Positions 3-19,949 of a stretch of 23,259 nt of DNA are shown here, one piece after another. The notes under the pieces were generated by a model. The model had not been told where the DNA came from. It saw only the letters and a list, made by a program, of their open reading frames with translations, and searched no databases. Positions within the stretch are counted from its first letter, which is position 1. Every line of letters begins with the position of its first letter. The position numbers and the translations under genes are program-made. The stretch comes from a virus (taxonomy: Duplodnaviria > Heunggongvirae > Uroviricota > Caudoviricetes), in IMG/VR virus record IMGVR_UViG_3300024346_000020, one strand, 5' to 3'.

Positions 3-104
3 ATGTATTATGAACTATTAAGAAAAAGAGAAAAGATTACTGATATGCTTTTGAAGATAGAGAATAGAAAGAGAAAAATAGAAAAACTATTATGCAAAAT
101 ATAG
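3..104 (+). CDS. 3' end of a gene entering the window (or a 33-aa ORF), hypothetical; ends ...NRKRKIEKLLCKI
   Basis: Hand translation from position 3: MYYELLRKREKITDMLLKIENRKRKIEKLLCKI-TAG (102-104); overlaps the next ATG at 92; carries the R-x-x-K-I-x-x-L-L motif seen in neighbours. Not in the supplied ORF track. Confidence 0.55.
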   Translation: MYYELLRKREKITDMLLKIENRKRKIEKLLCKI

Positions 105-418
105 AAGATAGATTTGAAATGGGAGATAGTGTTGTTTGTATAAAACAATATGAAACTCTAAAACCAAAAAGTCACTACAAGATAAAAGGTTGTGGTGACT
201 TAGAGTGGAATATGGCCACTGATAAAAAAGGTTATGGATTCTGTATTGAAGATGAATTTTTTGGTTCTGATAAGAAAGATTGGTGGAAGAAACCATACTC
301 AGAAAGAGTTAAATGGTATTACTTTACATTAGAAGAAATGAATGAGTTATTTATTACACAAGCAGAAGATTATGTAACATATACAAGAGATATAAAATTA
401 AAAGAATTAGGAATATGA
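92..418 (+). CDS. Hypothetical protein, 108 aa, C-terminal RDIKLKELGI motif
   Basis: ORF track; ATGA overlap with next gene; N-terminal FEMGDSVVCIK resembles small SH3-like phage domains (inference). Confidence 0.8.
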   Translation: MQNIEDRFEMGDSVVCIKQYETLKPKSHYKIKGCGDLEWNMATDKKGYGFCIEDEFFGSDKKDWWKKPYSERVKWYYFTLEEMNELFITQAEDYVTYTRDIKLKELGI

Positions 419-1032
419 TAGATATATTTGGTAATGTACCAATTGACTTAACGAAAATTACTTGTCATTCTGGTGGTGCAATTGGTAGTGATACTTATTT
501 TGAAAACATTGGAGCTAACTATGGAGTAAAAACTAAAGCTTATTCTTATAAAACAAAGTATCATACTACTGATAATAAAGTAGAAATTAGTGATACTGAC
601 TATGAAGAAGGAGTAAAAGCAATTCAGATTGCTAATAAAACTTTAGGTAGATTTGGTATTCACAGATTTATGAACTTGTTAGCAAGAAATTGGTCACAAG
701 TAAAGTATTCTGATGAAGTATTTGCCATTGGAACTATTGTGGCAGCCGGTAAAAAAGGTTCAAAAGGATTTTATAATAAGTCACAATTTGAAGTAGTTGA
801 TGGTGGTACTGGTTATGCGGTTCAAATGGCAGTTGATAATCAAAAAATAGTTTATGTTTTTGATCAAGACAAAGATAAATGGTTTAGATGGTCATATACG
901 TCATTATCGTTTAGAGAGTTGAAGGACACACCAGTTATTACAAGTGAAAATTTTGCTGGAATTGGAACAAGAGAAATAAAACCAAATGGTATTTTAGCAA
1001 TACAAGAGGTCTATAATTTAACATTTAATTAA
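415..1032 (+). CDS. SLOG (SMF/DprA-LOG) superfamily Rossmann-like nucleotide-binding protein
   Basis: HSGGAIGSD glycine loop, LARN, DGGTGYAVQMA and FAGIGTR motifs match recalled SLOG/YpsA-like signatures; not HMM-verified. Confidence 0.6.
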   Translation: MIDIFGNVPIDLTKITCHSGGAIGSDTYFENIGANYGVKTKAYSYKTKYHTTDNKVEISDTDYEEGVKAIQIANKTLGRFGIHRFMNLLARNWSQVKYSDEVFAIGTIVAAGKKGSKGFYNKSQFEVVDGGTGYAVQMAVDNQKIVYVFDQDKDKWFRWSYTSLSFRELKDTPVITSENFAGIGTREIKPNGILAIQEVYNLTFN

Positions 1033-1035
1033 AAC

Positions 1036-1407
1036 ATGGAAAAAGTAATTATTGAAATGACACCTTTTATATTTGAAGATGGTAATACCTACTACTTTCA
1101 AATCTTTAATAGACCGAGTACTAATGATTATCAAAACTTATATGTTTATGAAAAGAAAATAACTACTAAAAAGTCTTTTTGGGGTAAGGAAACAATCAAA
1201 GAAGATTTTATTCAATTAAATGAACGTGCAGAATTGGTAGATTACCGATTACGTACAGATGAAATAAAACATAGTATTAAAAAGATACTAACTGGTACAA
1301 AAGCAGAATATCTAATAAAAGACTGGGATGGATTTGTTGGTAATATACCAGACAATGTTAAAAAAGCATTATTAAGAGATAATAAATTAAAAGATTTAGG
1401 ATTGTAA
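1036..1407 (+). CDS. Hypothetical protein, 123 aa, C-terminal RDNKLKDLGL motif
   Basis: ORF track; TAATG overlap with next gene. Confidence 0.8.
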   Translation: MEKVIIEMTPFIFEDGNTYYFQIFNRPSTNDYQNLYVYEKKITTKKSFWGKETIKEDFIQLNERAELVDYRLRTDEIKHSIKKILTGTKAEYLIKDWDGFVGNIPDNVKKALLRDNKLKDLGL

Positions 1408-1838
1408 TGAAAAAATCAGCAGGTATAATAATAATTTTAAATAACACAAAAATACTTCTTTCACATGCCACTAATGCAAGATGGGAGAAAACTTTCTCAT
1501 TTCCTAAAGGAGGAATTGAAAAAGATGAAAAACGAATAGTCGCTGCAATTAGAGAATTAGCAGAAGAAACTTCTATTGTAATCACTAGAGAGCAAATTAG
1601 TAATAAAGAAGAACCTATTGTAGTAAATTATGTAGATAAATATGGTGAGAACTATAAGAGATTATACTTATACACCATTTATATAGAAGATATTTCTGAA
1701 ATTGGTTTAGAAAGTGAAATTGTACCTGTTGAAAATCTTCAAGCAGATGAATTAGATTGGTGTGGTTTTCTAACAAAAGAAGAAGCTAAGGATAAAATAT
1801 TTAATAGAGTAGAACATCTATTAGATTTAATCATATAA
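1407..1838 (+). CDS. Nudix hydrolase
   Basis: Nudix box G-GIEKD-E-KRIVAAI-RELAEETSI (G-x5-E-x7-REUxEE; final Gly replaced by Ser), preceded by FPKG. Confidence 0.9.
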   Translation: MKKSAGIIIILNNTKILLSHATNARWEKTFSFPKGGIEKDEKRIVAAIRELAEETSIVITREQISNKEEPIVVNYVDKYGENYKRLYLYTIYIEDISEIGLESEIVPVENLQADELDWCGFLTKEEAKDKIFNRVEHLLDLII

Positions 1839-1852
1839 CAAATAAAATTGTT

Positions 1853-2185
1853 ATGAGAGAAGTAAATTTAGATAATCCAATTTTTGCTTTCTATGTAAGT
1901 GTTGAAGGAATGTCAAGACAAAGTGCTGCACAGCATTTAGCAGAATTTAAAAATCAACTTAGTTATGATAATATAACTACTTGGATAATACCAGTTCAAG
2001 GAGAAAGCAAAGTAGAATGTGTTTATCCAGGTAAAAGTATGTATAATACACCTGAGTTAGAAAATTTGATAAAAGAAATAAATGAAAGAATTGAATTGTT
2101 CGCAGATTCAGATTCATTTGAAGATTTTAAGATAAATATAAGAGATTGGAGAATAGGAAAAATTTTCAATGAGAGCAATAAATAA
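1853..2185 (+). CDS. Hypothetical protein, 110 aa, near-C-terminal RDWRIGKIF motif
   Basis: ORF track, co-oriented in operon. Confidence 0.75.
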   Translation: MREVNLDNPIFAFYVSVEGMSRQSAAQHLAEFKNQLSYDNITTWIIPVQGESKVECVYPGKSMYNTPELENLIKEINERIELFADSDSFEDFKINIRDWRIGKIFNESNK

Positions 2186-2522
2186 AACATACGAGGATAA
2201 ACTTTTTAGATCAGAAGTAAAAATGGAAACTACCATGTGGTGGGACTATTATTACTACGATACTTCTTGGGAGCATGATGATTATTATGACTTTGGTTAT
2301 AATAAATCTGCCGATGGAAACCTACATCTTTTACCTAACTTAGATTATATTCATAGTAAAGGAAGAAAAATGTATCACGCAGTTGATATGGAATCTTTCT
2401 ACTCTAAAGAAGTTATGAGAGAAAAACGAATAAATGATTTACTAGGATTACCTGGTGGAACAGTAAGAACTGAAAAACCAACACTAGGAGATTTAATTAG
2501 AAAAGATGTACGTAACTCCTAA
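2169..2522 (+). CDS. Hypothetical protein with aromatic/acidic patch (WWDYYYYDTSWEHDDYYDFGY) and REKRINDLL motif; true start may be a downstream Met
   Basis: ORF track; overlaps both neighbours. Confidence 0.7.
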   Translation: MRAINKTYEDKLFRSEVKMETTMWWDYYYYDTSWEHDDYYDFGYNKSADGNLHLLPNLDYIHSKGRKMYHAVDMESFYSKEVMREKRINDLLGLPGGTVRTEKPTLGDLIRKDVRNS

Positions 2523-2922
2523 TCATATAAAAGAATTAAAAGAAAATGAGATCTTCGTTTTCGGTAGTAACCGTCAAGGTCGCCACGGAAAAGGTGCTGC
2601 TTTAACTGCTAGAAATAAGTTTGGTGCGATATACGGACAATCTGAAGGACTTCAAGGTCAATCATATGCTATAATAACAAAAGAACTACGAAAAGAGTAT
2701 CAACCGGTAAGTTTAGGTGAGATTAAACTGGGTGTTGATACTTTTATTCAGTTTGCCAAAGATAATAAACATCTAACATTCTATGTAGTTGAGTTAGGTT
2801 GTAACTTAGCTTATTTTACAGTAGAGGAAGTTGCACCTCTTTTTAAATCTGCAATGAAATTAAGAAACATTTATTTACCTGAAAGATTTTTAAACAATTT
2901 ACAAACAGGGTTTATAATATGA
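2506..2922 (+). CDS. A1S_2505-family phage protein (macro-domain-like, putative ADP-ribose related)
   Basis: IFVFGSNRQGRHGKGAA...FGAIYG..EGLQGQSYAI pattern matches the recalled family signature; the macro-like relationship is an inference. Confidence 0.65.
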   Translation: MYVTPNHIKELKENEIFVFGSNRQGRHGKGAALTARNKFGAIYGQSEGLQGQSYAIITKELRKEYQPVSLGEIKLGVDTFIQFAKDNKHLTFYVVELGCNLAYFTVEEVAPLFKSAMKLRNIYLPERFLNNLQTGFII

Positions 2923-3353
2923 ATAAAGAACAATTAAAGGAACTGATTGAAAAAGAAGGCGACACATTACTATGGAGTTATACTTGTAGTAATGGTGTCA
3001 TTATTGATTGTTCTATTCATAGAAATGGATTAAAAGCTTTATGTGGATATATTACTTTGACACAAGATAGTTCTTTATATGGAGTTGATTATGATGAACT
3101 TAATATAAGAGCACATGGCGGTCTAACATACAATTCATATGATGATAATAATAACTGGGTAATTGGATTTGATTGTGCACATCATGGAGATTTAACACCT
3201 TATTTTTTATTAGATGAAGATAGTGTCTTTGGATTAAGTGGCACTTATAGAGATATGGAGTACGTAAAATCAGAGTGTGAAAAACTAGCAGAACAAGCTT
3301 CAAAATTTAGTAAATCAATAGTAAGATATAATAAAATTAGTCAAATTATTTAA
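2919..3353 (+). CDS. Conserved phage hypothetical protein (CGY...HGGLTY...GFDCAH motifs), C-terminal RYNKISQII motif
   Basis: Motifs visible in the translation; Cys/His residues suggest metal binding (inference). Confidence 0.75.
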   Translation: MNKEQLKELIEKEGDTLLWSYTCSNGVIIDCSIHRNGLKALCGYITLTQDSSLYGVDYDELNIRAHGGLTYNSYDDNNNWVIGFDCAHHGDLTPYFLLDEDSVFGLSGTYRDMEYVKSECEKLAEQASKFSKSIVRYNKISQII

Positions 3354-3364
3354 AATAATTTTTG

Positions 3365-3372
3365 TATATTTG
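3365..3372 (+). promoter_or_regulatory. Bacteroidota-type primary-sigma -7 element TAnnTTTG (TATATTTG)
   Basis: Intergenic, 16 nt before ATG 3389; matches the established Bacteroides/Flavobacterium -7 consensus; no clear -33 TTG. Confidence 0.55.
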
Positions 3373-3388
3373 TAGAAATATAAACACT

Positions 3389-3493
3389 ATGTACTACGAT
3401 TTAGAAAATTACTCTGCTGAACAAGCATACTATTTATTACAAATGTATAATGACTTTATTGAGTCAGAATTACTACAAGAACTTAACAATTAA
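3389..3493 (+). CDS. Small hypothetical protein, 34 aa (MYYDLENYSAEQAYYLLQMYNDFIESELLQELNN)
   Basis: Hand translation; lies just after the TAnnTTTG element and ends 1 nt before ATG 3495. Below the ORF-track length cutoff. Confidence 0.55.
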   Translation: MYYDLENYSAEQAYYLLQMYNDFIESELLQELNN

Positions 3494-3494
3494 A

Positions 3495-4103
3495 ATGGAA
3501 GACGGAGATATGGTTGGATACACTTACACTGAGATACCCTCAGATTTTTCACCTTTGAGTGAAATTAGAAACTTAAAAATTAGATTGATTACCGAAGACG
3601 TAAAGTTTAAGGTTTTTGAAAATAACTTTGATAGATATGAAAGTTATTTAAGATTTATAGGTGATCAATATCCAGATGCAATTATCTCTGGGTCATTAGC
3701 ATTGAATTTATATTCTCTAATAAATAGAGAGATTAAAGATATTGATTTAATTGTAGATCAAAGACCTACCGGAGGATTTCATAGAGATAGATATGGGGAT
3801 GAAAACATTCCTGTAAACTCTGAAAGACTTGGTTATCAATATATCACAGAAGATTTCAGTTGGAGACGTATTTTTAATAAAAGACAAACTTTTAATGTAG
3901 ATTTCTTCTTAGATAATAATGATAAAGTAAAGTATAATACATTTACTTTTAACAAGAAAACTTATAAGATACAAGACCCCGTTCAAATTATTGAGCAAAA
4001 ACTAGAAATGGTAAATAATGCCGAGAACCATATGTTTGAAAGTAAAAGAAAACACAATAAAGACTTATTTGTGTTCTTTAAGAATTTCAACTGGAAAAAT
4101 TAA
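3495..4103 (+). CDS. Pol-beta-superfamily nucleotidyltransferase-like protein
   Basis: IISGSLAL...REIKDIDLIV (hG[GS]...DhD) and a later VDFF third acidic residue. Start moved from 3450 to 3495 because of the upstream 34-aa ORF. Confidence 0.65.
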   Translation: MEDGDMVGYTYTEIPSDFSPLSEIRNLKIRLITEDVKFKVFENNFDRYESYLRFIGDQYPDAIISGSLALNLYSLINREIKDIDLIVDQRPTGGFHRDRYGDENIPVNSERLGYQYITEDFSWRRIFNKRQTFNVDFFLDNNDKVKYNTFTFNKKTYKIQDPVQIIEQKLEMVNNAENHMFESKRKHNKDLFVFFKNFNWKN

Positions 4104-4144: not shown

Positions 4145-5062
4145 TCAAATCATATGTGTACAAATTTCATCCAACCATCCATTTCTGGATGAAATTTGAT
4201 ATGCACTTCTATTTTTTTTTTGAAACTCACTTCTACTATTATATTCAATCGCCATAACTTGACATCTTTCTTTTGTCCAATAACCTTTAGGCTTTATCTT
4301 TATATATTTCATATGTGAACATATTTCATCTAACCACTTATTCTTCTGTGATGCAGCATAGCCACCAGGGAATTTTTTTGAAAACTCTATCCTACTTTTA
4401 CATGAAAGTGCAAATTCGACACATTTCTCTTTTGTCCAGTAATTAAATACATTTTTACTTCTATTCATATGGATACATATTTCATCTAACCATTTACTTC
4501 TAACTGCTGCTCTATAAGATAAACTACCCTCTCTATAAGAACAAATATCATTATATTTTAATGCTTCTTCTTGACATCTTTCTTTTGTCCACTTTGTCTT
4601 GCCTCCACCCAATGCACCTGTTTTTACACTATTTAATATTTTCCATCCATTAGTAATATAACTCTCCAAAAACTCTTTTTCTTTAATAATTGCCAACTCA
4701 TTTGATATATAATCAGTCAGTATACTAAATATTGGTAAATTACCTGTTTTTAAAATATGTTTCTTAACTGGTCCTCTCTTAGTATGTTGTTTTTTACGTT
4801 CTTCTATATTATAAGTTAAACCAACATATACATAATTATCATTAAACTCATAAGAATATATACATCTATTATAGTGATTACCTATAATAGTCATATGACA
4901 ACAAATATCATCTAACCATTTACAATCCCACGCCTTACAATATGCAGCAAGACTATTTTTATTAAATTCACTTCTTGTTTTATATTTCAATGCTTCTTCA
5001 AGGCATTTTTCTTTTGTCCAATAGTTTTTAGGATTTCTTTTCTTAACCAAAATATCTTTCAT
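4145..5062 (-). CDS. Free-standing GIY-YIG-family (homing) endonuclease with four ~45-aa WTKExC...WLDEIC.HM repeats
   Basis: CIYSYEF...YVYVGLTYNIEERKKQH = GIY-YIG motif with R and H; one repeat N-terminal and three C-terminal to the nuclease domain; antisense to flanking genes. Confidence 0.8.
   Translation of the reverse strand: MKDILVKKRNPKNYWTKEKCLEEALKYKTRSEFNKNSLAAYCKAWDCKWLDDICCHMTIIGNHYNRCIYSYEFNDNYVYVGLTYNIEERKKQHTKRGPVKKHILKTGNLPIFSILTDYISNELAIIKEKEFLESYITNGWKILNSVKTGALGGGKTKWTKERCQEEALKYNDICSYREGSLSYRAAVRSKWLDEICIHMNRSKNVFNYWTKEKCVEFALSCKSRIEFSKKFPGGYAASQKNKWLDEICSHMKYIKIKPKGYWTKERCQVMAIEYNSRSEFQKKNRSAYQISSRNGWLDEICTHMI
4258..4591. repeat. Identical 22-nt direct repeat CTTGACATCTTTCTTTTGTCCA (4258-4279, 4570-4591) underlying the endonuclease repeats
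   Basis: Read directly; encodes WTKERCQ in two repeats. TCATCTAACCA (WLD[ED]) also recurs in three repeats. Confidence 0.85.
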
Positions 5063-5103: not shown

Positions 5104-5111
5104 TACCTTTG
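5104..5111 (+). promoter_or_regulatory. Bacteroidota-type -7 element TACCTTTG
   Basis: 15 nt before ATG 5127; matches TAnnTTTG. Confidence 0.6.
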
Positions 5112-5768: not shown

Positions 5769-5778
5769 TTAATATATA
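5769..5778 (+). promoter_or_regulatory. TTAATATATA motif 20 nt before TTG start 5799
   Basis: Exact intergenic copy. Confidence 0.55.
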
Positions 5779-5798
5779 AGAAAAACTAATATAATAAA

Positions 5799-6293
5799 TT
5801 GAAACATTTAAAAAGATTTAATGAATCTAGTGATTATGATTGGGAATTAGAAAGAGACGATTATCAAGATTTTTGTGATACTTATTTAGCTTACTTAACA
5901 GATGAAGATTTCAAAGTAACTTTAACAAACTTCGATAAACATAGAAAAACTATTTACATTCTTAAAGAAGGTGAAAAAGGTGGCTGGCTTTATAATCCAG
6001 ATGTAAGAGCTAATGCAACTTTTGAATGGGATGAAATTAAAGATTCATTTATTCCATTTCTAACATTATTAGAAAGAAAATGTGAAGGTACTTATTACTT
6101 AGGTGATGTAGATTCATCTGTGTTTTTTCCTCCGGGAACAATGGGAAAAGGTAACTTAATTCTATTTAATCATGAGTTAGATGGTAAATCAAAGTATGAC
6201 TATGTACCACTACAAGATTTACTGGATGATAAAGTAGATTTTATTGAAATCACATCAATTCAAATCACATTGAATATACTACCAAAAAAATAA
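5799..6293 (+). CDS. Hypothetical acidic protein, 164 aa, N-terminus MKHLKRFNES (TTG start)
   Basis: ORF track; N-terminus resembles a capsid-targeting-like peptide (inference). Confidence 0.75.
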   Translation: MKHLKRFNESSDYDWELERDDYQDFCDTYLAYLTDEDFKVTLTNFDKHRKTIYILKEGEKGGWLYNPDVRANATFEWDEIKDSFIPFLTLLERKCEGTYYLGDVDSSVFFPPGTMGKGNLILFNHELDGKSKYDYVPLQDLLDDKVDFIEITSIQITLNILPKK

Positions 6294-8231: not shown

Positions 8232-8262
8232 TTGTTTGTTTATAATTTTTGTTGTATCTTTG
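8232..8262 (+). promoter_or_regulatory. Bacteroidota-type promoter: TTG (8232-8234), 20-nt spacer, TATCTTTG (8255-8262)
   Basis: Matches the established -33 TTG / -7 TAnnTTTG architecture; 18 nt before ATG 8281. Confidence 0.7.
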
Positions 8263-10628: not shown

Positions 10629-10638
10629 TTAATATATA
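10629..10638 (+). promoter_or_regulatory. TTAATATATA motif heading the structural operon (22 nt before GTG 10661)
   Basis: Exact intergenic copy. Confidence 0.6.
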
Positions 10639-10660
10639 CAATGAAAAAAATTTTTTTGTT

Positions 10661-10879: not shown

Positions 10880-13800
10880 ATGTGGACATTTAATACTGAT
10901 TATAACAAATGGGTAACCGTTGAAGATAAAATATCAAAAAATAATTTTGACTATTTAAAACAAGAACTAGCTTCCACAAGATTCTACTCTAAGTGTCTTA
11001 GTGGTGCAACTTACTTACCTATAAATAATTTAGAGAATATTTATGATATTTTAGGTGAATATGAACCAAGAAATTGGTATATAAGTAATGTTGGATCAGT
11101 TTATACTTCTGGTGTACTTCCTACGAATTTTAAGTCTCCAATAACTAACCTTACATCATATGATTTTTATGAAAAGTATGTATCTGAGTATGGCTTAACT
11201 TTAAAGAATTTATTTACTCCAGATAGACTTATAAAGGATTCAGTAAAAAACTTTATATATGTTGATTTGGCAACAATCACTAGATTTTTAGATTTAGGTG
11301 CAACTTTTAATGAGTTATACCTTGATGGTATTAAAGTATTAGACGGTCATAGAATATTGATAAAAGATCAAATATCAACTACTACTCTACCATTTGATAG
11401 AGACCCAAATACATATTTTAAAGGTAATTATACAGTAATTCAAGATTATGGTGCTACTATAGAATATAACTTCTATAACTCTGATAATGGTATTTATACA
11501 TTCAATAAAGGTAAATTATTTAAAACTACTGAATTGAGTGATTATGCAGACTGTATTAGATACAGTGTTTCTGTTAAACTTGGAAATATCAATGCAGAAA
11601 AACAATTTCATTTGAGTAGATTATTAAACGGTTACTACCCAACAACATCTTTAAATGAACCTATTGAGTTTAAAGAAAAACATAATTGGTTATTAAGAAA
11701 TAGAGTTGATTATAATAACTTATTTGAAATAAACTACTATGATGTGGTCAAATATACAACACAGTCTTATTACTTGAGTGGTGTTACGTATAGTATACCA
11801 GAGAGAACTATTGCAGTAGGAGAATTTGGTGTTATTTTAAATACTCAAGGAGGATTATCTAATATCATTCCAAATAAGTATAAAGTAAATCTTAGAAGTA
11901 TTTCACAAACAGAAAAGTACTATTGGATATGTGGTGATAATGGAATACTTTTAAAAGTAAGAAAACATGATTTCACTATTGAGAAAGTTGACACTGGTGT
12001 TACAACCAATTTAAAGTCTGTTTCTTTTTATAATGATATTAAAGGTGTAATTGTTGGTGATCTAAACACAATATTGATAATAGATGATGGTCTGACCTGT
12101 AATAAAATAATAGTTGATGACTTTGATTCATACTATTACAACAAAGCAATATTTTATAAATCTAATAGTATTTATATTGTAGGTAATTCAGGAGTATTTC
12201 TTGAATTAAATGAAGATATTCAAGGTTGGGATGTCTATAAAAGAAGAGTTTCTAGATTTATAGATGACTTTGAAGAATATTTATTAGTTGATAACATCAA
12301 TGATATGTATATAACAAAAAGTTCCTGGGGTTTAAGTTTCTCATACTCCACACAAAGCTCTTTACCAGATAAAGAAATATTATTACTAACAACCGCAGAG
12401 AATAAAATAATTGTTTATGATATAAACAGTTCAATACCTAATTTTGATTTTATTTATCTTTCTTTTAGAGAAGATTATGGTGACATTAAGTCAATTACTA
12501 GATTTGAAGGCACCGGCACATCATCAAATATATTCTATTTTAATTGGTTAAAGACTGATAATCAAGGTGAACCAACATATGGTATATCATCATTTAACTT
12601 ATCCACATTTCAATATGTTGGAGTTGATAATATCTACTCTAATACTATCAGAAATTCACAAAATGCTCAACCAGAGAGTAACCTATATGTAAATAAAATA
12701 TTTAACTATAATGCAACTGAATTAGTAGTTTGTGGTAATAGTTCTTTATTATTGAAAGCAGACTATAATACATTTTTATTTAATACACTAGATCCAACTT
12801 TAGACTCAAGATTGAAATCAAAAATGTTATTTTTAGATTATGATATTGCAGGTAAATTAAACTTTTTTACAGATCTTGGTGATTATAGATTACCAAATGA
12901 GGCCATATTTTATCTATCAAGTACTTTCAGCGACTTTTTAATTACATCAACAACTTCAGCAACATCAATTATGACTAACGCGGTTACTAATGATACTATA
13001 ACAGTTGGTAATAATAATCCGGTTCCACTTAATATTGAGGTAAATTTAAACTTAAATACAACATCAATAAATAAATTAAGGATAAATCTAAAATCACCTA
13101 GTGGTAAAGTAATAAATCTTAAAAGAAACAATAGTGGTACTGGTCTAACTTTTTCAAACACTAAGTTCAGTACTAGTACTAATTTTACTAATTTTAGTAG
13201 TACTCCAGATATTTCTTATAATAATAAGAAATATCAAATGGATAAAGTATTAGGAATTGGTCGAACAGGTTGGGTATCAAATACTAACGCACTTACTGAT
13301 TTATTTTCAAACTCTTCTATAAATGGAAATTGGACGTTATATATTGAAGTAGTAGAGCCACGTGTAAGATCTATTGATCCTTTTGCTAGATTCTCATCTC
13401 CTACAATACCGATTATACCAATATTAAGTACACCTGTAGGAACATTTAGTAACTGGAGTATAAATTTTATTTATCAAGATCCAAATATAGTTTCACTAAC
13501 TTCTAGTGTATCTAATTTATGGTTTGATACTCTTATACATGGTGCAACGGCTCCAAGTTTTATGACTCAATCAGAAACAAATTGGTTAACATATTGGAAA
13601 GATACTGAAAAGACATTTAGATACTATGCAGGGGGTACGTATTCACCACTTGATGAATCAACAAAAGTTTTAATATCAACAACTTTCTCATATTCTACAG
13701 TTAGTGGTTCATTCTCAGTTATTTCTGATGATGTAACAAATTCAATTACTCAATTAGAAAGATTGGCACCTCCATCAATTGACTTTGAACAAAGTAGGTT

Positions 13801-16711
13801 TAATGGATTGAATCCACCTACTATTACATATCCTACAGAATTATCTACAATTTATTTGAAGGATTCAATAATGATTATTAGAGTACCTATGACATATCTT
13901 GTTAGAGTTGGTGATGTTATCAGATTGGAAAGTGATGTAGTTGATGGTAATTTTGTTGTTAATAGAATTTCAGAATTAACAATACCTCAGAATTTACCAC
14001 AAAGTGAATTTGAACGTCAAATGGCACCCTCAAATCGATCATTTAACTATCTTTATATGTTTACTAACTTTAATGAAAATATTATTACAAATTTAACTAA
14101 AACAAGTAATCCTATAAATATAATAAATCTAAATAAGTATAAAACTGTTGATGAACTTAAAAATAATTTCAATTTACATCCAATATCTAATGGTTACAAT
14201 TTAAGTTATACACCACCTAGTTCAGACACTCCATCAAATATAACTATAAATGCTAAATTTAACAACTTAACATCATATTATAACTTAGCAACTAATGTAT
14301 TTGTAAATGATAACATACGTTCAGGAACTAATTCTGTTATTGCAACGATGTCATATACGGGAGGATTTCTAAAGTTTGGATATACTCCTACATATAATCT
14401 TTTAGATTATTTGGAACAATTAAATGACAATACAAATCCAACTCCTAAATTTTATGCAAATAAAGAATATCTAGCAATGCCTGATTATAGATTAGTACCA
14501 ATGCCTGGTTCAGATAGTCATCAGACATCACAAATTTATATAGAGTATAATAATGTCACTACACAAAATAGAATATATTTTGGTAAGGATTTAAGATTAG
14601 AATGGGAGAGTATATTTATAAATACTTTTGTAGATATTACTATCTACTCTATTGGCAATCCATCACAGGATTCCGAAAGGTTATTAGTTATGAAAAAGGG
14701 TATAGTAAATGACCCAGATAATTATCCAAATTCAGGATATTTTATTGATTTTCATAAAAGTTTAACTTATGTTATTGGTGATCCACAGACATTGATAGAT
14801 ATTAAGTCAAGACGCACATTATTACAAATAAGTCATGACTTACAAGAATTGAATAATATACAAAGAGGTTTATTAAAGAAAAAAGACTTGTTACTTGGAT
14901 CAGAATTTTATAACTATGAGAGAGATTTAAACTTTAAGATTCCAACAGATTCATATGCTAAGATACTATTATCTGATGTAGATACTATCAGAGAATTATC
15001 TGCTTTAATTTATATTGATTATAAAAATGAGTTAGCAATGAATATTACAAGACTTGATAAGGAATATACTATTCCTATTATTGGTACTACTAATTATAGT
15101 TTAAACGGAAAAGTTTTAATAATATGTAAGGATAATCACGACTTAAAAACTGGTGATAGTGTTACATTAGAGTTTAATGGAGGTACTTTCTCATCACAAT
15201 TTTTAAACCAGCAATACTTTGGATATCAAAATGTAACAGTAGTAAATTCATTGAATTTCTATATTGATTTGCCTTATGGTAATAGTACTGTAGGAGATAC
15301 GGGATTTGTTAAATATCTTAAAAGAGATCCATTTTTAAATTATCAACCAGTTGATATTATTGATGTTGGTGTTGATAAAAGAGGTAAAAATGCAATAGAA
15401 CTAAGTATTGATAATTTGAAGCTATCAGGTGATGTTTATAGTTTAGTAAATGTTGATTTTAATAAATTTAGATTTAGATTAGTTGATGGTTTAACAGTCG
15501 AGACATTATCGTTAAACTATCCATGGATATTAGAAGCAGAAATTACTGATGCTATAATTGGGAATGATGGTAATAATATTGTTTGGTATAAAGGTAATTG
15601 GGAATGTGGTAGATGGTTCGGTGGTACTTGGATGTCAGGTATTTGGAAATCAGGAGACTGGTATGGTGGTACTTGGAATGCTAAAAAAATTAAAGATAAT
15701 TTAATATCTGTTGAAGTTGCAAACAACACTTCAGATAAATCTTTATCAACTTGGTTTTCTGGAAGATGGTATGATGGTACTTGGAATGATGGTGTTTGGG
15801 TTGATGGTAGATGGTATGGTGGTACTTGGAATACAGGAGAATGGTATAAAGGTACTTGGAATGATGGTACTTGGAATGATGGTGAGTTTTCTGGAGGTGT
15901 TTGGATAACAGGTACTTGGAATAACGGTGTACTTAACTGTAACAATGATCCAACATTTTGGATTGATGGTAAGTGGAATGGTGGAGACTTTGAGAATGGT
16001 ATATGGTATGATGGTATTTTTGAGGAAAAAAATGGATTATCCAGATTTGGAACAAAGGCATTTAATAGTAGAACCGCAACTTGGCATAGTGGTCAATGGT
16101 TAAGTGGAAGCTTTTATTCAAGAATGATACTAGATAATAATGACGAGCCTCAAGTTTCGTTATCACACAAATATTCAATATGGCATACTGGATCTTGGTA
16201 TTCTGGTGATGTATATGGTGGTATTTTCTATAATATTGATTTTAAATCAGGAACTTGGTACGGGGGTATATCAGAAGAAATACAAATAATAAAGGTTAGA
16301 ATTAGTCAAAATAATTCTTATTTAACATTAAATGGAGTATTTAGATTTAATATAGGAGATGAGATTACTATCGTTCCTAAAGAAGAACAGATAGATTCTA
16401 GTGGTGCATACTATAGTTCTTATTTTAGTACGGAAAGATATAAAGTAATTTATGCAGAGAACCCAGATTTAGATAATAAAACAACTAGAATCTATATTGA
16501 TTCTGATATTATTGATCCTAATTTTAACTACAATGATGATATTTATACTCAAAATATAGATGGTGTGGAAACAAAGATGAGAGTTATAAGCAGATTTAGA
16601 AATACTGATTGGAGATCAGGTATTTGGACAAATGGTATTTTTGAAACTGGATACTGGCAAGGTGGTATTTGGTATGATGGTACTTTCGGTGAGAAAGCAA
16701 AATGGAGTTAA
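10880..16711 (+). CDS. Giant (1943 aa) mosaic putative virion/baseplate-tail protein: tail-type DGxxxxxGxRILIKDQ motif, beta-propeller-like xVGxxGxIL blades, proprotein-convertase P-domain-like module, C-terminal WxxG pentapeptide repeats
   Basis: Motifs read from the translation; structural role inferred from size, composition and neighbours. Confidence 0.75.
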   Translation: MWTFNTDYNKWVTVEDKISKNNFDYLKQELASTRFYSKCLSGATYLPINNLENIYDILGEYEPRNWYISNVGSVYTSGVLPTNFKSPITNLTSYDFYEKYVSEYGLTLKNLFTPDRLIKDSVKNFIYVDLATITRFLDLGATFNELYLDGIKVLDGHRILIKDQISTTTLPFDRDPNTYFKGNYTVIQDYGATIEYNFYNSDNGIYTFNKGKLFKTTELSDYADCIRYSVSVKLGNINAEKQFHLSRLLNGYYPTTSLNEPIEFKEKHNWLLRNRVDYNNLFEINYYDVVKYTTQSYYLSGVTYSIPERTIAVGEFGVILNTQGGLSNIIPNKYKVNLRSISQTEKYYWICGDNGILLKVRKHDFTIEKVDTGVTTNLKSVSFYNDIKGVIVGDLNTILIIDDGLTCNKIIVDDFDSYYYNKAIFYKSNSIYIVGNSGVFLELNEDIQGWDVYKRRVSRFIDDFEEYLLVDNINDMYITKSSWGLSFSYSTQSSLPDKEILLLTTAENKIIVYDINSSIPNFDFIYLSFREDYGDIKSITRFEGTGTSSNIFYFNWLKTDNQGEPTYGISSFNLSTFQYVGVDNIYSNTIRNSQNAQPESNLYVNKIFNYNATELVVCGNSSLLLKADYNTFLFNTLDPTLDSRLKSKMLFLDYDIAGKLNFFTDLGDYRLPNEAIFYLSSTFSDFLITSTTSATSIMTNAVTNDTITVGNNNPVPLNIEVNLNLNTTSINKLRINLKSPSGKVINLKRNNSGTGLTFSNTKFSTSTNFTNFSSTPDISYNNKKYQMDKVLGIGRTGWVSNTNALTDLFSNSSINGNWTLYIEVVEPRVRSIDPFARFSSPTIPIIPILSTPVGTFSNWSINFIYQDPNIVSLTSSVSNLWFDTLIHGATAPSFMTQSETNWLTYWKDTEKTFRYYAGGTYSPLDESTKVLISTTFSYSTVSGSFSVISDDVTNSITQLERLAPPSIDFEQSRFNGLNPPTITYPTELSTIYLKDSIMIIRVPMTYLVRVGDVIRLESDVVDGNFVVNRISELTIPQNLPQSEFERQMAPSNRSFNYLYMFTNFNENIITNLTKTSNPINIINLNKYKTVDELKNNFNLHPISNGYNLSYTPPSSDTPSNITINAKFNNLTSYYNLATNVFVNDNIRSGTNSVIATMSYTGGFLKFGYTPTYNLLDYLEQLNDNTNPTPKFYANKEYLAMPDYRLVPMPGSDSHQTSQIYIEYNNVTTQNRIYFGKDLRLEWESIFINTFVDITIYSIGNPSQDSERLLVMKKGIVNDPDNYPNSGYFIDFHKSLTYVIGDPQTLIDIKSRRTLLQISHDLQELNNIQRGLLKKKDLLLGSEFYNYERDLNFKIPTDSYAKILLSDVDTIRELSALIYIDYKNELAMNITRLDKEYTIPIIGTTNYSLNGKVLIICKDNHDLKTGDSVTLEFNGGTFSSQFLNQQYFGYQNVTVVNSLNFYIDLPYGNSTVGDTGFVKYLKRDPFLNYQPVDIIDVGVDKRGKNAIELSIDNLKLSGDVYSLVNVDFNKFRFRLVDGLTVETLSLNYPWILEAEITDAIIGNDGNNIVWYKGNWECGRWFGGTWMSGIWKSGDWYGGTWNAKKIKDNLISVEVANNTSDKSLSTWFSGRWYDGTWNDGVWVDGRWYGGTWNTGEWYKGTWNDGTWNDGEFSGGVWITGTWNNGVLNCNNDPTFWIDGKWNGGDFENGIWYDGIFEEKNGLSRFGTKAFNSRTATWHSGQWLSGSFYSRMILDNNDEPQVSLSHKYSIWHTGSWYSGDVYGGIFYNIDFKSGTWYGGISEEIQIIKVRISQNNSYLTLNGVFRFNIGDEITIVPKEEQIDSSGAYYSSYFSTERYKVIYAENPDLDNKTTRIYIDSDIIDPNFNYNDDIYTQNIDGVETKMRVISRFRNTDWRSGIWTNGIFETGYWQGGIWYDGTFGEKAKWS
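15584..16266 (+). repeat. WxxG(x) pentapeptide repeat array (likely beta-helix); further copies at 16610-16708; DNA unit GGTACTTGGAATGATGGT recurs
   Basis: WYKGN WECGR WFGGT WMSGI WKSGD WYGGT W... read directly. Confidence 0.9.
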
Positions 16712-16726
16712 AATTGTATTTTAATT

Positions 16727-16736
16727 TTAATATATA
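16727..16736 (+). promoter_or_regulatory. TTAATATATA motif 4 nt before ATG 16741
   Basis: Exact intergenic copy. Confidence 0.6.
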
Positions 16737-16740
16737 GTAT

Positions 16741-19929: not shown

Positions 19930-19949
19930 TTTTAATATATATATTAAAA
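19930..19949. promoter_or_regulatory. 20-bp perfect palindrome TTTTAATATATATATTAAAA containing TTAATATATA (19932-19941, 21 nt before ATG 19963)
   Basis: Read directly. Confidence 0.55.

Follow-up and report, generated by a model that had tools for sequence, protein, structure and literature searches.

Short terminal peptides that address proteins to a common partner are known from several systems. MuA (...RRKKAI) and SspB (...LRVVK) end in short C-terminal peptides that address or tether them to Clp machines; some peptides of this kind are basic and hydrophobic. The N-domain of ClpC is the binding site of MecA and of phospho-arginine. The capsid-targeting sequence (CTS) of phage T4 is located at the N-terminus of a few proteins, among them the internal proteins IPI-III and Alt, and is removed by the prohead protease. 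Encapsulin cargo-loading peptides are short C-terminal tags, whose reader is the HK97-fold shell. Several LxxLL, PIP and clamp-binding motifs are located at extreme C-termini.

Here, a stretch of 23,259 nucleotides of Caudoviricetes DNA (IMG/VR record IMGVR_UViG_3300024346_000020; below, the window) was analysed, in which small proteins encoded at 66-3350 carry a common peptide near their C-termini. The data as a whole are best explained, with a probability of about 60%, by a portable C-terminal peptide tag that is specific to one lineage and docks onto a common reader. It resembles an address or docking label of early proteins that has not been described so far; a literature search yielded no publication on it. 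Its invariant Arg and Lys and its three Ile/Leu residues would make up one helical face, which would dock into a groove on one reader shared by all carriers. In this manner, the early accessory proteins would all be directed to the same site or machinery. The leading candidate for the reader is a phage-encoded ClpC without Clp_N, accompanied by two ClpP paralogues.

Tag copies in the window

A pattern scan of the window ORFs yielded six strict matches to R-x-x-[KR]-[IL]-x-x-[IL]-[GILF], all in 66-3350 (Table 1), and none in the remaining ~6,400 residues. These are the six copies that the initial annotation had listed, and each was confirmed at its coordinates. Two thousand shuffles of the window proteins gave a mean of 0.22 matches in total and 0.017 at the C-terminus, compared to 6 and 5 observed. 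Five of the six copies are at most 5 residues away from the stop codon, i.e. inside the C-terminal range of ~10 residues, and the copy in 2169..2522 is found 25 residues from the protein end. On a weight matrix, for which the relative LR745206 served as the only training set, the six copies reach 15.9-20.4 bits. The remaining window ORFs score 3.9 bits or less, with the exception of an internal near-match of 13.9 bits in ORF 3450-4103. A seventh, degenerate copy had been proposed in ORF 1407-1838, in which a domain search identified a Nudix domain. This copy obtains -1.7 bits, has no basic residue at position 4 and had to be dropped. Therefore, six and not seven of the first nine ORFs are tagged.

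Table 1. Coordinates of tagged proteins, untagged neighbours and the discarded Nudix copy in the window
Position	Strand	Feature	Basis or remark
66-92	+	Tag RKRKIEKLL	ORF 3-104, 3 residues before stop; 20.4 bits
92..418	+	108-aa orphan protein, tag RDIKLKELG-I at 386-412	18.2 bits
415..1032	+	Untagged DprA/SLOG-like Rossmann protein, same operon	phrog_768; best weight-matrix score -5.3 bits
1036..1407	+	123-aa orphan protein, tag RDNKLKDLG-L at 1375-1401	19.4 bits
1806..1832	+	RVEHLLDLI, C-terminal end of Nudix hydrolase ORF 1407-1838	Not a tag
1853..2185	+	110-aa protein, tag RDWRIGKIF at 2141-2167	Pattern match
2169..2522	+	117-aa orphan protein, internal tag REKRINDLL at 2418-2444	20.0 bits
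2506..2922	+	Untagged operon gene, phrog_2072	Best weight-matrix score 1.9 bits
2919..3353	+	144-aa phrog_2164-family protein, linker and tag ...SKSIV-RYNKISQII-stop (3324-3350)	PHROG match

Counterparts of the window proteins keep the tag or a variant of it. The LR745206 counterpart of ORF 3-104 has the C-terminus KRKSKIKNIW. The L001 orthologue of protein 92..418 retains RDRKINSII with 51% identity in the body, and RERKIDQIL is the conserved L001 counterpart of the internal copy in 2169..2522. Orthologues of protein 1036..1407, whose bodies are 29-54% identical, end in RDSKIKDILGY and RDGKLKSILGE and display both synonymous and I/L changes. Among more than 100 metagenomic homologues of protein 1853..2185, nearly all have kept RDWR[IL]xx[ILV][ILVF], followed by tails of 1-11 residues. 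Orthologues of the untagged protein 415..1032 are 59-63% identical, and its conservation is above that of its tagged neighbours. Neither a Pfam nor a PHROG family was found for protein 92..418. Its stop codon overlaps the following start codon (ATATGA). Likewise, the five residues after RDWRIGKIF in ORF 1853-2185 overlap the start of the next gene at 2169. ORF 3-104 comprises 33 aa and may be truncated by the window start.

Enrichment and spread among related phages

The related phage LR745206 has 635 kb and 975 ORFs. It contains 134 motif matches compared to 7.8 +/- 2.9 in shuffles, and none of the 134 is N-terminal. In 113 of the 975 ORFs, the motif lies at most 10 residues from the C-terminus, whereas shuffled proteins gave 0.59. 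Enrichment at the C-terminus over shuffled proteins had been suggested as the test on which the idea of a tag should stand or fall, and these figures bear it out. A weight-matrix score of at least 8 bits was reached by 168 LR745206 ORFs, but by 1.0 in shuffles. The mirror pattern and two scrambled patterns had merely 2-9 total matches in this genome, with 1 C-terminal match for the mirror and 2 and 0 for the scrambled versions. The consensus reads h-x-x-h-R-[D/E/N]-x-[K/R]-[I/L]-x-x-[I/L]-[L/I/F/G], with 0-9 residues between it and the stop codon. Tagged genes are dispersed across the LR745206 genome and are distant from the structural genes.

About 12-17% of the ORFs carry the tag within one clade of megaphages of 260-640 kb. 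For instance, 76 of 506 ORFs are tagged in G009, a genome with 37% GC. Approximately 16 of 18 orthologue pairs between LR745206 and G009 (26-53% identity) keep the tag or a near variant. Lak phages and the other megaphages examined have no tag. The tag is restricted to a single clade of related megaphages.

Codon use and the nucleic-acid alternative

A conserved peptide might be the by-product of a DNA or RNA signal, either for the translation start of the next gene or as a recombination cassette; the latter had been put forward as an alternative in the initial annotation, which pointed to 26 of 31 identical nucleotides between 385-415 and 1374-1404. This figure is correct, and additional observations point in the same direction: in 50 of 92 co-directional cases, the next ATG follows the end of the motif within 1-5 nt (offsets -1 to +5), 53% of the tagged genes compared to 26% of the others overlap the next start, and codons ending with A (ATA, TTA) are favoured at tag positions 7-8. 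However, the codons used at the defining residues resemble those of the genome. For the tag Arg, all six codons are used at frequencies like those of the whole genome (p = 0.69; LR745206), and codon choice for Lys and for the first Ile/Leu (position 4) agrees with the genome, too. At the defining positions, orthologues have 10 codons in common and differ by 5 synonymous changes and by 15 residue changes within a class, with I/L and K/R interchanging. Frame and distance between motif end and next ATG vary, and the starts are not preceded by a common nucleotide motif at constant spacing. For 42 of the 113 LR745206 tags, there is no nearby co-directional start, as they have a convergent neighbour or a downstream gap of more than 15 nt. 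Furthermore, 340 starts with at least 45 nt of noncoding upstream DNA displayed A/T richness, but neither a motif nor a Shine-Dalgarno signal, and the tag is retained at 37% GC in G009. The 26/31 identity can be attributed to the same peptide combined with AT-rich codon bias. The tag is selected at the protein level and the nucleic-acid reading, cassette version included, is already contradicted; we consider it extremely improbable.

Promoter class and timing

In LR745206, the nearest upstream promoter-like motif is host-type for 55 and late-like for 9 tagged genes, compared to 219 and 279 untagged genes (Fisher p = 7e-11), where the classes are assigned by sequence motif, ~43% of the genes have no assignment and the host-type box TAnnTTTG also arises by chance. 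The late-like motif is TTAATATATA. TAnnTTTG is 2.7-fold enriched in intergenic DNA, and a correctly spaced -33 TTTG accompanies 23% of its intergenic copies but only 6% of those in coding DNA. By these motifs, the tagged genes probably belong to a host-promoter, early-type class and are expressed early. The promoter class of the tagged genes was newly added by this analysis.

These data also bear on a possible role in capsid loading. The tag could bind the procapsid interior or a scaffold, and the tagged proteins would be packaged and injected, similar to what the T4 CTS or encapsulin cargo peptides bring about. A precedent for such C-terminal tags is provided by the latter, whose reader is a shell with HK97 fold, and the capsids of megaphages are large enough for many internal proteins. 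However, the late-like motif, which is located ahead of structural genes, is depleted before tagged genes (9 of 64 assigned). In addition, an N-terminal motif similar to the T4 CTS, MK[YH]LKxFxE, already marks a separate late class (1 host-type and 16 late-like genes), none of which carries the C-terminal tag, and there is no resemblance to the GSL-type consensus of encapsulin cargo. A capsid-loading signal is, hence, very unlikely.

Protein bodies and predicted helix

The bodies of the 113 tagged LR745206 proteins fall into 112 BLAST clusters, a Pfam match was obtained for 2 of 112, and the median length of the tagged proteins is 99 aa. With few exceptions, the carriers are small orphans, and their bodies are unrelated to each other. 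In the phrog_2164 family, to which protein 2919..3353 belongs, the tail is present in the megaphage members and absent from distant ones: P0115 (from a Tannerellaceae MAG), P0116 and P0119 end ~17 residues sooner. The tag has, hence, been appended to one domain family at least, the distant members of which are without it. Together with cluster numbers and codon use, this upholds the proposal that small, unrelated proteins share a C-terminal tag that is portable and conserved as a peptide.

In the AlphaFold2 model of protein 2919..3353 (pLDDT 93), body helix 113-128 is followed by a helix of its own for the tag, at 132-143. In the model of protein 1853..2185, the tag is placed within the terminal helix 89-109. 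The tag is, therefore, predicted to be a short terminal helix in two different bodies, in line with the helix-compatible spacing noted at the outset. Altogether, the original reading of the window held for tag, helix and enrichment, but not for the DNA cassette and the Nudix copy.

A helix of this kind might do without a common reader. It would then be a generic C-terminal cap, or a handle for self-association, by which small and rapidly evolving proteins are stabilised or made to oligomerise, and would have spread through descent or through recombination among genes. The pattern L-x-x-L-G-h in the logo is compatible with a Schellman-type helix C-cap. Moreover, the tag helix is modelled beside the last body helix with high confidence, so it may pack on its own protein. 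However, invariant Arg and Lys residues with a fixed spacing in 113 unrelated bodies would be superfluous for a generic cap, which would not stay within one promoter class and one phage clade either, and distant homologues with the phrog_2164 fold manage without the tag. A cap without a reader is, in our opinion, clearly unlikely, and docking onto a common reader is preferred.

ClpC and ClpP as candidate reader

A lead newly added by this analysis is that the common reader might be a phage Clp protease, i.e. ClpC lacking the N-domain (Clp_N) together with ClpP. The tag could be a degron that would limit the lifetime of early proteins. Alternatively, it could be a tether similar to SspB or MecA, by which more than 100 variable small proteins would carry bound host targets to the protease. 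This assignment is tentative, and the odds are against it. In LR745206, the region 423224-425329 matches residues 145-803 of B. subtilis ClpC (E = 8e-239) and retains the VGF loop for ClpP docking. Two full-length ClpP genes are present in the same genome, and LR756502 likewise encodes a ClpC orthologue with the VGF loop and two ClpPs. All tag-bearing genomes examined have a ClpC with an N-extension of 38-48 residues of the type [IV][KR]A[AS]L[ED]DDDD...KTPVLD, whereas the ClpC proteins of tag-free genomes have different N-termini and lack this conserved acidic extension. Four of four near-complete contigs retrieved via a tagged family, i.e. independently of ClpC, also encode ClpC. Furthermore, there is a tagged protein that corresponds to a free-standing copy of the M-domain/UVR segment of ClpC, and the gene directly upstream of clpC has a tag-like C-terminus (ERRENIINDIL / RRDEIIDELL). 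A precedent is SPO1 Gp53, a small early phage protein that is an adaptor-like partner of host ClpC (PMC6873191).

On the other hand, ClpC is far more widespread than the tag: the complete genomes G015 and G017 encode ClpC but are devoid of the tag. The tag-bearing genomes form one clade, so that the co-occurrence of ClpC and tag amounts to a single evolutionary event and may reflect common descent alone. The other chaperone genes found, encoding phage DnaK and GrpE, do not follow the tag; therefore, the chaperone set as a whole is not tied to it. The variable tail after the motif (0-9 residues) also argues against Clp as reader; together with the conserved internal copy in the window, it makes a poor fit with degrons that depend on a free carboxylate at the C-terminus. 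The ClpP1 gene is located behind a host-type box. ClpP1 would, therefore, be produced together with the tagged proteins, which is ill-suited to a simple 'late clearance' model.

A more specific version, which we consider rather unlikely, is that the tag serves as docking handle of a phage-encoded system for targeted degradation, in which more than 100 rapidly evolving early proteins would hand targets to the phage ClpC/ClpP to be destroyed. The variable body of each protein would bind a different host (or phage) target, and the common C-terminal helix would dock on the acidic N-extension of the phage ClpC.

Comparison with known systems

Like the SspB XB motif and the ssrA and MuA signals recognised by ClpX/ClpA, the tag is a short C-terminal peptide, and its phages have genes for a Clp unfoldase and for ClpP. 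Of the ClpC adaptors MecA and SPO1 Gp53, the latter is an example of an early phage protein that acts on ClpC. It differs from SspB XB and ssrA/MuA in its sequence, forms a predicted helix of two to three turns that allows up to 9 further residues, and is present on more than 100 different proteins per genome. A degron of the ssrA/MuA type with a free carboxylate was rejected: the trailing residues are variable, and a conserved copy resides 25 residues from the protein end. Compared to adaptor tethers (SspB XB; MecA/Gp53 type), the predicted layout of the tag is a linker and then a separate helix. In contrast to the systems of MecA and Gp53, the candidate unfoldase would be the phage's own, which lacks the N-domain.

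With the T4 CTS, the tag shares the principle of a short common terminal peptide as address label on unrelated phage proteins. However, it is C-terminal, present on about 15% of the ORFs, belongs to operons with host-type promoters and is never combined with the N-terminal CTS-like motif found in the same clade of genomes. A T4-type capsid-targeting sequence was discarded because of the C-terminal position and because the late-like motif precedes so few of the assigned tagged genes. Encapsulin cargo peptides and the peroxisomal PTS1 are also C-terminal portable signals of ~10 residues for unrelated cargo, but they have a different consensus, a known receptor (shell protein or Pex5) and far fewer prokaryotic cargo types. 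An encapsulin cargo-loading peptide was excluded, too: the logo lacks a G-S-L core and the tagged genes are away from the structural genes. LxxLL boxes, PIP boxes and clamp motifs (QL[SD]LF) are short amphipathic, groove-docking helices with the same h-x-x-h-h spacing. In contrast to them, the tag has no defining Gln or aromatic residues, and its invariant Arg and Lys have no counterpart there. Sliding-clamp motifs (QL[SD]LF; T4 gp45-binding tails) were, hence, ruled out: R and K are invariant, and both Q and an aromatic core such as the acidic-aromatic LDFL type are missing.

For the adaptor version of the hypothesis, the ankyrin/PRANC host-range proteins of poxviruses, with their F-box-like C-terminus, are the best analogue, since there, many variable target-binding bodies share one common C-terminal docking element for a degradation machine. 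PRANC, however, is a folded domain of ~40 residues that binds the eukaryotic host Skp1, whereas the phage tag comprises ~13 residues and its partner is a candidate. If the docking-handle version is true, bacteriophages would have their own equivalent of the strategies known from poxvirus PRANC/F-box proteins and from HIV Vif, but with the protease supplied by the virus as well.

Occurrence of the tag

The C-terminal tag R-x-x-[KR]-[IL]-x-x-[IL]-[GILF] was searched for as the regular expression R..[KR][IL]..[IL][GILF]. It matches six ORFs between positions 66 and 3350 of the window, where the initial annotation had placed them, and nothing among the remaining ~6,400 window residues. Five of the six matches are C-terminal, and 2,000 protein shuffles yielded means of 0.22 matches in total and 0.017 at the C-terminus. 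REKRINDLL of ORF 2169-2522 lies 25 residues before the protein end, a place conserved in the orthologue. A weight matrix derived from LR745206 only assigns the six copies 15.9-20.4 bits, which separates them clearly from every other window ORF. The Nudix sequence RVEHLLDLI, initially counted as a degenerate seventh copy, scores -1.7 bits with this matrix and is not a member.

The window is densely coding and has ~29% GC. Its closest public relatives are the uncultured phage genomes LR745206 (635 kb) and LR756502 (642 kb) with ~70% nt identity across one third of the first 8 kb; matches to Prevotella Lak megaphages were all short and weak. Genome-wide statistics were computed on the relatives, for which the entire LR745206 was taken (975 ORFs from a simple caller). 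Here, the regular expression finds 134 matches compared to 7.8 ± 2.9 in composition-preserving shuffles. The anticipated C-terminal enrichment was confirmed: 113 of the 134 matches are located at most 10 residues from the C-terminus (0.59 expected), and none is N-terminal. As controls, the mirror pattern was found nine times and two scrambled patterns seven times and twice. With the weight matrix, ~168 LR745206 ORFs (17%) are tagged versus 1 in shuffles. The logo reads h-x-x-h-R-[D/E/N]-x-K-[I/L]-x-x-[I/L]-[L/G/I/F]-x-stop, and the motif is followed by 0-9, most commonly 1-2, residues. Tagged proteins are short (median 99 aa vs. 141 aa for all LR745206 ORFs). Their genes are scattered over both strands and cluster towards the genome ends.

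The tag is also abundant in LR756502 and in the IMG/VR records G002-G006, G009, G010, G013 and G014. It has a lower density in G007 and occurs as the variant R-x-x-x-I-D-x-I-L in G012. No tag was found in Lak-B1, LR756500, G015 and G017 or, by pattern counts, in G016, G019 and G021. One short peptide marks about one seventh of the genes of the largest known phages, almost all of them orphans without family assignment.

Peptide or nucleic acid signal

As an alternative, a DNA cassette had been considered, based on the identity of 26 of 31 nt between positions 385-415 and 1374-1404. This identity is present in the window, and identical peptides together with an AT-rich codon bias suffice to give it. 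Conservation at the DNA level only is not what the codons reveal. At the invariant Arg, all six Arg codons are used in genome-wide proportions (p = 0.69), which argues for selection on the peptide. Ile and Leu codon use at position 4 fits the genome, too. A lean towards A-ending codons is confined to the last two tag positions, in keeping with the A/T-rich surroundings of the following start. When window and orthologues are compared at the five defining positions, 10 codons are identical, 5 synonymous and 15 represent residue swaps within a class; synonymous changes between orthologues include AGA/CGA, AAA/AAG and TTA/TTG/CTA. In G009, a record with 37% GC, 76 of 506 ORFs are tagged in the form R-E-x-K-L-x-E-L-G-I. 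Of 18 orthologue pairs between LR745206 and G009, ~16 have retained the tag or a closely similar variant at a body identity of just 26-53%.

The tag often ends immediately 5' of the next ATG, also in genes that continue for another 5-7 codons to their stop. Offset and frame between tag end and ATG are variable, and for 42 of the 113 LR745206 tags, the neighbouring gene is convergent or the gap exceeds 15 nt. At 340 starts with noncoding upstream DNA, neither a Shine-Dalgarno signal nor a tag-like motif was detected; the few 'noncoding' tag matches resemble unannotated mini-ORFs with the tag at their end. 'LGI' as a Shine-Dalgarno sequence (TTAGGAAT-ATG) was rejected, since noncoding start regions contain at most 13% G at every position. 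Codon use, changes between orthologues, tags without a close downstream gene and the 37% GC of G009 all argue against the cassette, and the variable offsets and motif-free noncoding starts led us to dismiss nucleic-acid readings of the tag in general. For this close packing, the best explanation is that the next gene starts once the upstream protein has reached its functional end.

Portability and predicted structure

Without their tag, the 113 LR745206 proteins fall into 112 BLAST clusters. Only 2 of 112 tagged proteins have Pfam matches and 3 a PHROG family, and the tagged protein of 731 aa was without a family in the Pfam and PHROG scans. Homologues are rarely detectable, even in those sister lineages that possess large tagged sets of their own. 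A single weak Gp23 match (E = 2e-4), which was not assignable to any individual member, is probably spurious.

The clearest case of portability is ORF 2919-3353, which belongs to the widespread family phrog_2164. All megaphage members end with ...S-x-S-x-x-R-x-x-K-[IL]-x-x-[IL]-[ILV], whereas distant members, among them one from a Tannerellaceae MAG, stop ~17 residues earlier, directly after the last body helix. The AlphaFold2 model of ORF 2919-3353 (pLDDT 93) displays an alpha/beta body whose last helix spans 113-128 and, after a short break, a separate tag helix at 132-143. In the model of the unrelated ORF 1853-2185, which has a different fold, the tag is within the terminal helix. Foldseek searches of the PDB with both models yielded no significant fold match. 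R, K and Ile/Leu would share one face of a helical wheel, and L-x-x-L-G-h may resemble a Schellman C-cap. We assign a probability of about 0.95 to the tag being real, selected as a peptide and portable.

Promoter classes and timing

Two motifs dominate intergenic DNA of LR745206, TTAATATATA and TAnnTTTG. The former resembles the T4 late promoter TATAAATA, the latter is the -7 box of Bacteroidota housekeeping promoters. TAnnTTTG is 2.7-fold enriched in intergenic regions, and a properly spaced -33 TTTG accompanies 23% of its intergenic but 6% of its coding copies. Perfect TAnnTTTG promoters drive a tRNA cluster. In the window, TTAATATATA precedes large structural-type genes at 5799, 10661, 16741 and 19963, including those whose products start with MKHLKRFNE (5799) and MIKKYSQFINE (16741). 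The window's own TAnnTTTG boxes point to a putative Bacteroidota host.

With promoter classes inferred from sequence motifs only, the nearest upstream motif is host-type for 55 and late-like for 9 tagged genes compared to 219 and 279 untagged genes (Fisher p = 7e-11). For ORFs of at least 500 aa, the corresponding numbers are 9 and 36, and for genes with an N-terminal MK[YH]LKxFxE, a motif similar to the T4 capsid-targeting sequence (CTS), 1 and 16. None of the MK[YH]LKxFxE proteins of LR745206 carries the C-terminal tag. The promoter split and this lack of overlap suggest that the tagged set is most likely early and distinct from the putative capsid-targeted set. Probable early expression and separation from the CTS-like set speak against a role of the tag in capsid loading. 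We lean towards a common docking or address signal of early proteins, a reading held with moderate confidence.

Candidate readers

One candidate for the partner that binds the tag is the phage-encoded ClpC together with ClpP. ClpC of LR745206 (701 aa) aligns with residues 145-803 of B. subtilis ClpC (E = 8e-239) and comprises D1, a UVR-type M-domain, D2 and a VGF ClpP-docking loop. Instead of Clp_N, it has an acidic stretch of ~42 residues. LR745206 encodes two full-length ClpPs (E = 1e-55 to 1e-68), and an equivalent set of one ClpC and two ClpPs is present in LR756502. Relatives of this ClpC are frequent in IMG/VR (576 matches). Every examined tag-bearing genome encodes a ~700-aa ClpC with a conserved N-extension of 38-48 residues ([IV][KR]A[AS]L[ED]DDDD...KKPDSKSKTPVLD), and so do all four near-complete contigs that were reached via a tagged family, independently of ClpC. 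By contrast, ClpC of the tag-free G015 and G017 has a short, different N-terminus, and a canonical Clp_N domain is present in G016, G019 and G021.

On the other hand, ClpC is far wider in distribution than the tag, and its presence alone was rejected as a predictor, as G015 and G017 have ClpC but no tag. Since all tag-bearing genomes belong to one clade, the co-occurrence may reflect simple common descent. Tails of variable length and a conserved copy inside a protein are at odds with classical carboxylate-dependent degrons. The clpP1 gene is located behind a host-type promoter box, so that ClpP1 would be made alongside the tagged proteins. A predicted complex of phage ClpC (L029:2974-5106) and P0170, a tagged protein encoded on that contig, scored 0.00, which speaks neither for nor against binding. 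In sum, ClpC/ClpP is the leading candidate reader, held with low confidence.

DnaK/GrpE was discarded: G014 is tagged without DnaK, and G017 and Lak-B1 are untagged with DnaK. A gene-content comparison of tag-bearing and tag-free genomes yielded 57 clade-specific genes, among them a helicase, TROVE/Ro60, NAD ligase, GrpE and orphans; so long a list does not single out a reader. Related megaphages have a near-complete proteostasis set composed of N-extended ClpC, two ClpP paralogues, full-length DnaK and GrpE. Its Lak-B1 counterpart comprises a 419-aa ClpX-like AAA_2 protein, ClpP, a split DnaK and GrpE.

Features in the window and in LR745206
Feature	Location	Strand	Remark
Late-like motif TTAATATATA	window 5769-5780, 10629-10640, 16727-16738, 19932-19943	+	10-30 nt before structural-type gene starts
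Late-like motif TTAATATATA	window 9727, 9781, 8224, 5092	-	10-30 nt before structural-type gene starts
TAnnTTTG -7 boxes	window 3365-3372, 5104-5111, 8255-8262		intergenic, before ORF 3389/3450, ligase-like gene 5127, gene 8281
Internal near-match IRNLKIRLIT	window 3450-4103, residue 40		13.9 bits, near N-terminus of nucleotidyltransferase-like protein; may be chance or relic
GIY-YIG endonuclease-like gene	window 4145-5062	-	four ~45-residue module repeats (YWTKE.C.EEALKY...WLDEIC.HM); probably homing endonuclease inserted into early operon
1,943-aa protein	window 10880-16711		C-terminal third Trp/Gly-rich repeats (GxWxxGxW...); no family match; probably structural or fibre protein
ClpC	LR745206 423224-425329 (L020:256-2358)
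ClpP	LR745206 123556-124221, 75119-75859
Conserved gene directly upstream of clpC	L029:2573-2950; LR745206 422809-423204		tag-like end helix without Lys, RRDEIIDELL / ERRENIINDIL
99-aa tagged protein	LR745206 296085-296384 (within L008)		first ~60 residues copy ClpC M-domain/UVR segment (39% over 59 aa, E = 6e-9); could be ClpC regulator or mimic
Three near-identical perfect Bacteroidota promoters	LR745206 419750-420100 (within L011)		TTTG-N19-TAtaTTTG; tRNA/small-RNA genes; upstream of clpC operon
DnaK	LR745206 473651-475432		full-length, E = 1e-251
GrpE	LR745206 462777-463475
TROVE/Ro60 homologue	LR745206 241087-242538

Implications and comparison with known systems

The tag is of interest for its scale and for a reader that can be approached by experiment. 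As a simple marker in the sequence, it allows early accessory genes of the clade to be recognised, and it could double as a portable targeting peptide. If its role is that of an address or docking label, it offers one experimental handle on more than 100 early orphan proteins at once and would delimit a functional class within the 'dark matter' of megaphages. Should phage ClpC/ClpP prove to be the reader, phages would have their first described case of a virus-encoded system for proteolysis or delivery that is directed by a tag.

Literature searches retrieved no description of a C-terminal tag in megaphages or jumbo phages. Phage SPO1 has a small early protein, Gp53, with an adaptor-like role towards host ClpC (PMC6873191). 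In jumbo phages, genes for ClpP, ClpA, ClpX and ClpS have been noted with the tag unmentioned (PMC7824862). While the tag differs from established systems in those of their defining features that can be tested, it resembles SspB XB, ssrA, the T4 CTS, encapsulin cargo peptides and PTS1 as terminal address or docking peptides, and is akin to the poxvirus PRANC box in concept.
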